NCBI GenBank assembly: GCA_045802645.1
Contig: JBJMQQ010000131.1
Coordinates: 2,050 to 66,049 of the forward strand
Direction: 5' to 3'
Origin: Polyangia bacterium
GTDB lineage: Bacteria > Myxococcota_A > Polyangia > Fen-1088
Length of the DNA stretch: 64,000 nt
Positions 48,374 through 49,432 of the stretch are shown here, one piece after another; within the stretch, counting starts at the first letter, position 1; every line of letters begins with the position of its first letter. The position numbers were made by a program, and so were the translations under genes. A model generated the notes under the pieces. That model was not told the DNA's origin and made no database searches. It saw only the letters and a program-made list of their open reading frames with translations.

Positions 48374-49432
48374 ATGCGCCTAGCCGGGTACGTCGCGGCC
48401 GAGTTGACCATCGCCGCGACTTTGCTCGCGGGCGGGGTGACAGGTGCGGCGTTCGGCATCCGGCACCTCCGACATGTCCTGGCGCCCCACGCGATCACCC
48501 CGGCCGGCCCGCTGGCGGCTCGCGACGACCTGTCGGAGCTGGGCGACCTGCGCGTCTCGCTGGAGTCGTCCGGGACCTTTCTCGGCATGTCGGACGAGCT
48601 GCTGCTGGAACGCGTCCGCACCCAGCCCATCAAGCGGTTCAAGCTGAATCACGGCGGTTCGTCGATCTCCTTCCGCATCGACTTCGCCGACGGGTCGCGG
48701 GCCGCCTGGAAGCCGCAGCAGACGAACAGCCAGACCGTCCCCCGCAAAGAGGTCGCCGCGTATCGCCTGAACCGGCTGCTGGGCCTCAACGCGGTGCCGC
48801 CGGCGGCGGCCCGGGCGGTCTCGCGTGAGGAGCTGTTCACACACCTGCACCCCGACAGCGTGGAGTTCGTCCCGCGCATCCAGGACGAGGTGATCTTCGG
48901 CCCCGACGGCAAGACGCTGGGGACCGCGTCCTACTGGATCCCGGTCATCAAGGACTGCGGGTTCGACAAGGGTGAAGGGCGACAGCAGATGCAGGCCTGG
49001 CTCACCCACGGCGAGACCATCCCGCCGGACCAGCTGTCGATGGCCCGGCAGGTTTCGGACCTGGTGGTGTTCGACTTCCTGACGTCGAATCCCGACCGCT
49101 ACTCGGGCGGCAACATGAAGATGTCGCCGGACGGCAGCGAGCTCTTCTACATGGACAACACCATGTCGTTCTTCCTGGACCCGCAGGGCAAAGAGAAGAT
49201 TCGCGACGTGCTTTTCCGGACCCAGCGCTTCTCGCGGTCCCTGGTCGACGCGCTGAACCGCATCACCGAGGCCACACTGCGTCGGGCGTTCGGGACCGAA
49301 GCCGGCGCCGGCCACGAGATTCTGACCCCGGCCGAGATTACGGCCGTCATTGCGCGCCGCGACGTCATCAAACGCCACATCGATGACCTGATTGCGAAGT
49401 ACGGCGCCCGGGACGTCCTGCTTTTTCCCTGA
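48374..49432 (+). CDS. membrane-anchored Fam20/FJX1-like secretory-pathway-type kinase homologue
   Basis: N-terminal anchor [22 protein letters not shown]. WKPQQ...[27 protein letters not shown] and [17 protein letters not shown]...LFYMDNT parallel the recalled Fam20C strings (FKPMRQ...[36 protein letters not shown]...HLDN). Confidence 0.6.
   Translation: [352 protein letters not shown]

Follow-up and report, generated by a model that had tools for sequence, protein, structure and literature searches.

A 64,000-nucleotide stretch of contig JBJMQQ010000131.1 from a Polyangia bacterium, referred to here as the window, encodes a membrane-anchored, 352-residue protein (48374..49432, + strand, stop codon included) that is a genuine homologue of the Fam20/Golgi casein kinase fold. 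The assignment draws on the open reading frame (ORF) and its translation, a family profile searched against the PDB, an AlphaFold2 (AF2) model and Foldseek comparisons. These data identify the protein as a real, uncharacterised bacterial variant of the Fam20 kinases, and as a member of a large and mostly exported Myxococcota family. The best overall explanation, to which we assign a probability of roughly 0.6, is that the gene product is a single-pass enzyme anchored in the inner membrane, in which the Fam20 atypical kinase fold takes a compact bacterial form. Its kinase domain would lie on the periplasmic side, held at the membrane by a conserved helix, and would use a nucleotide together with Mn2+ or Mg2+ to phosphorylate a substrate in the envelope, be it protein (on Ser/Thr), glycan or lipid.

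Two alignments were used in the sequence comparisons, one of 34 close sequences (65-85% identity) and one of 108 diverse family members. A phmmer search of the PDB with the target alone detected FAM20C at E = 1.7e-4, and a profile of the 34-member alignment detected it at 1.6e-7. With the 108-member profile FAM20C scored 3e-25, zebrafish Fam20C 1e-22, FAM20A 5e-20, C. elegans Fam20 2e-16 and a hydra Fam20B-like protein 1.7e-13; the first family outside Fam20, PI4K-IIα, appeared at 0.08, some 24 orders of magnitude behind Fam20C. Hidden Markov model (HMM) alignments with Fam20C, Fam20A and Fam20B span both lobes of the kinase, at approximately residues 75-165 and 215-353. Queried singly, the target scores 17.8 bits (E = 0.0029) against the Pfam Fam20C model (PF06702), below its gathering score of 26.8, and E = 0.14 against Pfam FAM198. 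Across the family, the Fam20C model matches 49 of the 108 members at E < 0.01 (best 3.9e-11), and precomputed PF06702 matches are present on many exported members in the protein collection. Fam20 membership is thus borderline by Pfam's own threshold; the homology is clear. As many members already receive automatic Pfam Fam20C matches, this homology was latent in the databases rather than wholly new.

Structural modelling leads to the same assignment. With the shallow 34-sequence alignment AF2 returned an unusable model, with a mean predicted local distance difference test score (pLDDT) of 49.6, a failing cured by the 108-sequence alignment, for which pLDDT rose to 92.7 with a predicted template modelling score of 0.81. 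Per-residue pLDDT is 94-99 over residues 71-300, 85-87 over 301-320, and 95-99 from 321 to the C-terminus. Together with the HMM alignments to Fam20A/B/C, these values delimit a Fam20-type kinase domain of ~285 residues (approximately residues 67-352; 48572..49429, +). When the model was compared to the PDB with Foldseek, ranks 1-28 were all Fam20 structures (E ~1e-13, probability 1.00), with template modelling scores of 0.57-0.63 from a query that included the 66-residue anchor and linker; PI4K-IIα followed the Fam20 ranks at 4e-7. The agreement of family profile, confident AF2 model and Foldseek ranking establishes the Fam20-fold homology. An earlier note on this DNA had proposed exactly this fold, and both the 108-member profile and the Foldseek ranking bear it out; with Pfam's Fam20C model the single sequence falls short, and it is the family profile and the structure that decide for Fam20. 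The bacterial and animal proteins have the same fold across both lobes and the C-terminal helices, as well as the Gly-rich loop, the ion-pair Lys and Glu, the catalytic Asp and the metal-binding Asp in common. The distance between them is nevertheless large, with only 16-18% identity between the target and the Fam20 structures, and a domain of ~285 residues against the 350-430 modelled residues of solved Fam20 chains. Among the animal proteins, Fam20C is the Golgi casein kinase, Fam20B a xylosylkinase and Fam20A a pseudokinase; their kinase activity is directed at secreted proteins (S-x-E) or at xylose in the proteoglycan linker.

A match numerically stronger than the target's own match to Pfam Fam20C is to a cytoplasmic-type kinase, the NCBIfam SCO1664 family (TIGR03843), at 32.7 bits. 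It covers the catalytic core alone (model positions 132-232 of 253) and lies far below the cutoff of 172.4, and although TIGR03843 matches 77 of the 108 family members, every one of these matches is below cutoff. HipA_2 (PF20613) matches 30 of the 108 (best 6e-8), with the individually checked members scoring 17.9-22.4 bits against a cutoff of 27. The type II PI4K alpha and beta, HipA-like and SCO1664 families, all cytoplasmic, have in common with the bacterial kinase a core of the form FDxLxxNxDR...N...D, including a catalytic-loop Asn that is not found in Fam20C, and their matches extend over ~100 residues of the catalytic region. The CotH and PI3_PI4 kinase models were also searched, as the earlier note had suggested, and the target has no match to the Pfam PI3_PI4 model (PF00454). 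CotH, a spore-coat kinase of Bacillus, acts in the mother-cell cytoplasm of Firmicutes and on the spore coat, and does not belong to the proteins that a diderm exports by Sec or lipoprotein signals. It is described as only distantly related to Fam20C (PMC7821199), and its model (PF08757) matched neither the target at E <= 10 nor any of the 108 members at E <= 0.01.

Alignment to Fam20C allows the active site to be read residue by residue; adding 140 to the chain index of 5yh3_C reproduces six published Fam20C positions (K271, K285, E306, E311, D458 and D478). In Fam20C, K285 and E311 form the ion pair, D458 is catalytic and D478 binds metal, and the kinase-dead mutant is D478A (PMC4421793). 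The bacterial Gly-rich loop, G94-G-S-S97 (48653..48664, +), aligns with KSGGTQ of Fam20C, with G94 present in 101 and S97 in 92 of the 108 members. Lys113 (48710..48712, +; AAWKP against ALFKP) is equivalent to Lys285 and is Lys in 92 members and Arg in 14, and Glu126 of helix C (48749..48751, +; KEVAAY against AEIAAF) is equivalent to Glu311 and is Glu in 105. The catalytic loop D241-R-Y-S-G-G-N247 (49094..49114, +; NPDRYSGGN against NMDRHHYET) places D241 at Asp458, with D241 conserved in 106, R242 in 108 and N247 in 104 of the 108 members. Asp261, in the motif M-D-N (49154..49156, +; YMDNT against HLDNG), is equivalent to the metal-binding, DFG-like Asp478 and is conserved in 107. The two Fam20C-like motif blocks pointed out in the earlier note are aligned by HMMER with exactly the Fam20C segments that it named, and the catalytic Asp equivalents, D241 and D261, are present and near-invariant. 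As far as alignment can tell, the nucleotide and metal machinery (Gly-rich loop, Lys113-Glu126, Asp241, Asn247 and Asp261) is present, and the target is likely to be a catalytically active kinase.

This active site nonetheless differs from that of Fam20C, having no Glu306 loop, Ser99 for Lys271, DRxSGGN for DRHHYE, and none of the disulfide cysteines. In the animal enzyme a Fam20-specific loop brings Glu306 into the active site, and its change to Gln makes Fam20A a pseudokinase (PMC4421793). In the bacterial profile precisely this loop is deleted, over 13 residues, and between K113 and E126 the only majority residues of the 108-member consensus are Pro114, Gln116, Pro123 and Arg124, none of them acidic. 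Conversely, Asn247, at position D+6 of the DRxSGGN motif, is of the canonical type and has no counterpart in Fam20C, which reads DRHHYE there. Since the canonical Asn is kept and the Glu306 loop is absent, the enzyme probably stands nearer in its active site to the ancestral HipA/PI4K-II type, and it appears from this comparison that animal Fam20C replaced the function of the catalytic-loop Asn with Glu306. The Myxococcota family thus offers a natural experiment on this replacement. The second nucleotide-binding Lys of Fam20C, Lys271 (PMC5413348), aligns with Ser99. On the same strand, but two positions later, Arg101 (Arg or Lys in 99 of the 108 members) may substitute for it. No cysteine is invariant in either the close-orthologue or the 108-member alignment, and the target's only one, C195, is not conserved. 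The Fam20 disulfides, of which ceFam20 has four (PMC5413348), are consequently absent.

The missing Glu306 raises the question of whether the protein is an inactive pseudokinase or scaffold that, like Fam20A, binds only nucleotide or a partner. Fam20A demonstrates that the fold can be conserved despite lost catalysis (PMC4421793, PMC5413348), and the bacterial proteins lack an equivalent of the very residue whose loss inactivates it. However, the catalytic Asp, the metal Asp, the ion pair and the additional canonical Asn are conserved in 104-108 of the 108 members, the ion-pair Lys with the Lys/Arg distribution given above, and Asn247 plausibly supplies the metal ligand provided by Glu306 in Fam20C. 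A pseudokinase is thus very improbable.

The family to which the target belongs is extensive. Its close relatives number at least 824, all from Polyangia metagenome-assembled genomes (MAGs) and all named "hypothetical", and an exhaustive profile search at E <= 1e-3 recovered 1,125 clusters (50% identity), 614 of them reaching E <= 1e-10. Bacterial members, described as rare in the earlier note, are anything but. Every named family member is from Myxococcota and annotated "hypothetical", with the taxonomy of the wider family resting on few source names (Polyangia, Sandaracinaceae, Myxococcales, Kofleriaceae, Haliangiales and a 'MYX' soil bin). One family member of 759 residues (P0258) is a fusion, in which a major facilitator superfamily transporter (Pfam MFS_1, 7e-23) lies N-terminal to the Fam20-like domain.

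Whereas the bacterial family is found in Myxococcota, Fam20 has been traced in the literature only within animals (PMC5865150, PMC9758233). A study of Fam20 evolution searched animal genomes alone and never mentions bacteria (PMC5865150), a 2021 review of Fam20 makes no mention of bacterial relatives (PMC7948968), and a 2022 survey of the Legionella kinome lists FAM20 among "eukaryotic- or Metazoa-specific" clusters (PMC9758233). Literature searches for PF06702, for Fam20 together with myxobacteria, or for extracytoplasmic phosphorylation returned nothing, and within the literature searched the description of the bacterial members as uncharacterised holds. Fam20 kinases count there as an animal invention, of which the Myxococcota family is a prokaryotic relative and a possible origin.

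The target possesses a single N-terminal hydrophobic helix, with a mean of 1.72 in its best 19-residue Kyte-Doolittle window, which AF2 models over residues 2-36. The ORF, the modelled helix and the hydropathy profile together confirm the earlier description of a 352-residue protein with one N-terminal anchor. The predicted transmembrane (TM) segment, at approximately residues 3-29 (48380..48460, +), follows the motif MRLxGxhxxELxxAxxLxxG, with an intramembrane Glu10 and GxxxG-like small residues; E10 and A14 are invariant in the alignment of close orthologues. The intramembrane glutamate and the GxxxG-like face suggest that the helix docks onto a membrane partner. Elsewhere in the family the same domain is joined to other N-termini. 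Among the 108 diverse members, 25 have the conserved TM motif of the target, ~29 a lipobox lipoprotein signal and ~35 a Sec-type or hydrophobic N-terminus, while 19 are unclear, some of these with a small additional N-terminal domain and no signal. Sec or lipoprotein-type export signals are thereby found on ~64 of the 108 (~60%), members without an export signal being P0161, P0167, P0186 and P0204, and several members of each anchor type feature a Pro/Ala-rich tether after the anchor. With most N-termini carrying Sec or lipoprotein signals on the same domain, the family is predominantly extracytoplasmic, and the kinase domain of the target probably also faces the periplasm. Fam20 proteins are known to carry an N-terminal anchor or signal ahead of an extracytoplasmic domain, and the bacterial kinase is predicted to be arranged likewise. 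Of the earlier proposal of extracytoplasmic phosphorylation, the location therefore survives as the most likely one, on the strength of these export signals and not of the Cys-rich neighbours on which it was originally based.

Such a location bears on the chemistry, and it can be asked whether the enzyme is extracytoplasmic but not an ATP-dependent kinase, using another donor or carrying out another nucleotide-dependent reaction such as AMPylation, which some other kinase-fold enzymes perform. ATP is generally considered absent from the periplasm (PMC5740924), so that an exported, apparently competent kinase is a puzzle, and the departures from the Fam20C active site described above could be taken in the same direction. 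On the other hand, the standard phosphotransfer residues (Lys, Glu, Asp, Asn, Asp) are all near-invariant, no sequence feature points specifically to other chemistry, and animal Fam20 kinases themselves use ATP and Mn2+ in a compartment with imported ATP. We consider a different chemistry improbable. An apparently competent nucleotide-dependent kinase in a supposedly ATP-free compartment poses a testable problem for bacterial cell biology.

Gene neighbourhoods offer a further view of possible partners. Counts come from tblastn searches in which the genes neighbouring the kinase in the window were compared with 82 orthologous loci in Myxococcota MAGs; these loci represent the close subfamily only. 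The most frequent upstream neighbour is a membrane ResA/TlpA/DsbE-like thioredoxin with a WCSPC motif (43485..44567, +), conserved in 67 of the 82 loci and a candidate partner of the kinase. It matches Pfam AhpC-TSA (1.7e-19) and Redoxin (9e-19) and, below cutoff, NCBIfam ResA (1.6e-25); its thioredoxin domain is C-terminal and fused to a multi-pass membrane domain of ~200 residues. The start of this gene overlaps the stop (ATGA) of an upstream type III pantothenate kinase (PanK) gene, itself present in 61 of the loci, an overlap that suggests translational coupling. Downstream lies a RimO-type radical-SAM methylthiotransferase (49495..50823, +; Pfam UPF0004, Radical_SAM and TRAM_2), conserved in 63 loci. 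It is separated from the kinase gene by 62 bp, and no terminator-like site was found between 49432 and 49495, hence the two may be co-transcribed.

The conserved neighbour closest to the kinase encodes a 69-residue Cys/His-rich, zinc-finger-like protein (48111..48320, - strand; 55 of 82 loci) with the pattern CxxC...CxxxxC...CxxxC...H...H and weak matches to zf-FCS and zf-MYND (E = 0.017-0.018). It is 80-99% identical across Polyangia, a conservation that exceeds that of the kinase. We also considered 48111-48320 as a conserved RNA, but it contains no tRNA and has no credible Rfam match, and is instead the gene of this small protein. In Polyangia it is divergent from the kinase gene, whereas in Kofleriaceae/Haliangiales it is co-directional and just upstream, within the order redoxin, zinc finger, kinase, and then a gene for a zinc finger-TM-HEAT protein whose start overlaps the kinase stop. 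In one Kofleriaceae locus (L079, 9104-10552, +) the last of these is a 482-residue protein whose CPICGK...YCSAEH zinc finger is N-terminal and which also has a TM segment and HEAT repeats of the PBS-lyase type. PADLOC anti-phage defence models matched neither the kinase nor the zinc-finger protein, the redoxin or a Cys-rich lipoprotein.

The Cys-rich lipoproteins of the window are encoded by three paralogous genes (44619-45245, 46594-47322 and 47360-48085, all +) whose products are 44-52% identical, with the lipobox AGC, 23-24 Cys each, repeated DADC/DxDCG motifs and no Pfam match. Within the same block, which directly follows the ResA-like thioredoxin gene, is a gene for a di-haem protein (45265-46578, +) with two CxxCH motifs and weak similarity to the di-haem cytochrome c peroxidase, MauG, MbnH and RoxA families. 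The earlier note proposed assaying the kinase on the neighbouring lipoproteins, and the corresponding model, in which it phosphorylates these three, draws on their proximity in the window, on the extracytoplasmic location of the lipoproteins and (probably) of the kinase domain, and on the action of animal Fam20C on secreted proteins. Synteny largely refutes it. Each lipoprotein gene occurs in only 2 of the 82 orthologous loci (closest relatives L003 and L004) and the di-haem gene in 3, while the kinase, redoxin, zinc-finger and RimO genes are conserved throughout. From this scarcity it follows that the block 44619-48085 is a recent lineage-specific insertion. Nor is the kinase gene directly downstream of it, as had been stated, for the minus-strand gene at 48111-48320 and a terminator-like hairpin (48106-48127) intervene. 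The three lipoproteins are hardly tenable as the substrates to which the enzyme is dedicated.

Outside the close subfamily, a different set of neighbours recurs. In a subfamily with signal peptides (L083-L086 and L088) the kinase gene is preceded by genes for CcmC, a CcmD-like protein (101-128 residues) and a TM peptide of 41-44 residues, and within the L083-L088 block sometimes also by an acyl-CoA dehydrogenase gene. Downstream in this block are genes for a TM protein of 119-145 residues and then a soluble, sensor-less HisKA/HATPase_c protein. A lipoprotein-type member (L087) has the same partners nearby after a local inversion, with two serpin genes inserted beside the kinase gene, and in a third subfamily (L089) the kinase gene converges on genes for CcmB and for a protein with a weak TPR_CcmH_CycH match. 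The occurrence of three independent arrangements beside genes of System I cytochrome c maturation or thiol reduction is suggestive of a role at the periplasmic face of the inner membrane. More specifically, the kinase could work with its upstream ResA/TlpA-like thiol reductase in cytochrome c maturation or in periplasmic thiol-redox control, a tentative proposal that we hold at rather less than even odds. The repeated association with ResA-like, CcmC/D and CcmB genes provides a concrete place to seek substrates.

Several of these observations weigh against a periplasmic, redox-linked Fam20 kinase. Besides the sub-threshold Pfam score of the single sequence, the alignment of Lys271 with Ser99 and the awkwardness of ATP-dependent phosphorylation in the periplasm, the flanking charges of the anchor run the wrong way. 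The target has Arg2 before the helix and Arg30 and Arg33 (with His31 and His34) after it, and across the target and its close orthologues one Arg precedes the helix and 2-4 Arg/Lys follow it, so that by the positive-inside rule the opposite topology is weakly preferred. Several conserved neighbours are cytoplasmic, namely the zinc-finger protein, RimO and PanK, plus the acyl-CoA dehydrogenase of the other subfamily, and part of the synteny may accordingly be inherited gene order without functional meaning. Only three independent arrangements underlie the Ccm association, which was spotted after the fact, and no ccm genes beyond the ResA-like one were found within the window or the 82 orthologous loci.

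Many of these points would be accommodated if the helix were inserted N-out/C-in. The kinase domain would then be cytoplasmic, membrane-tethered and accessible to ATP. Like HipA or PI4K-II, it would act on a cytoplasmic or inner-leaflet target, for instance a lipid or the 69-residue zinc-finger protein. The charge bias, the cytoplasmic RimO and PanK, and the retention of a signal-less zinc-finger protein as closest conserved neighbour in two gene arrangements all fit such an orientation, as do the cytoplasmic-type nearest relatives outside Fam20 (PI4K-IIα, HipA_2 and SCO1664) and the few members without an export signal, and the problem of periplasmic ATP vanishes. Yet most members carry unmistakable Sec or lipoprotein signals on the same domain through a similar Pro/Ala-rich tether, and proteins outside the cytoplasm typically exchange one such N-terminus (TM anchor, lipobox or signal peptide) for another. 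Moreover, the charge bias is lost in more distant TM-type members, and the other conserved neighbour is a periplasmic-type ResA/TlpA thioredoxin. We judge a cytoplasmic domain unlikely, and retain the periplasmic Fam20-type enzyme as the preferred explanation.

The most far-reaching version of this explanation is that exported Fam20-type kinases, their active sites intact, have radiated widely in Myxococcota, where they act at the periplasmic face of the inner membrane, are tied to cytochrome c maturation or thiol-redox control, and constitute the prokaryotic stock from which the metazoan secretory kinases (Fam20A/B/C and relatives) arose via horizontal transfer. Taken in its entirety this scenario is doubtful. 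If true, it would make these proteins the first genuinely periplasmic kinase family, and would imply a supply of nucleotide or another phosphate donor to the bacterial periplasm.

The kinase gene itself begins at the ATG at 48374, by ORF analysis the earliest possible start downstream of an in-frame stop at 48320-48322, and its third-position GC of 0.89 is typical for genes of this ~70% GC window. It is separated from the divergent zinc-finger gene by an intergenic region of 53 bp (48321..48373), which contains a conserved -10-like box, TATAAAAT, at 48356-48363, 10 nt ahead of the kinase ATG and kept across 23 orthologous loci. A strict sigma-70 promoter scan found no promoter there, and the box emerged from the alignment of loci. 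The -10-like TGCTATAAAAT box ends 10 nt before the start codon, a spacing that implies a 5' leader that is very short, if there is one at all. Some database gene calls carry longer, basic N-termini that read through this conserved TGCTATAAAAT box, and these extensions were rejected as artefacts. The region also includes a palindrome, CCGGTAACGTACCGG (48324-48338), conserved in close relatives only. Further downstream in the window, a gene for an extracytoplasmic function sigma factor (51363-51905, +) is followed by a 928-residue ORF for a large caspase-domain (Peptidase_C14) protein (52204-54990, +), a pair conserved only in close relatives.

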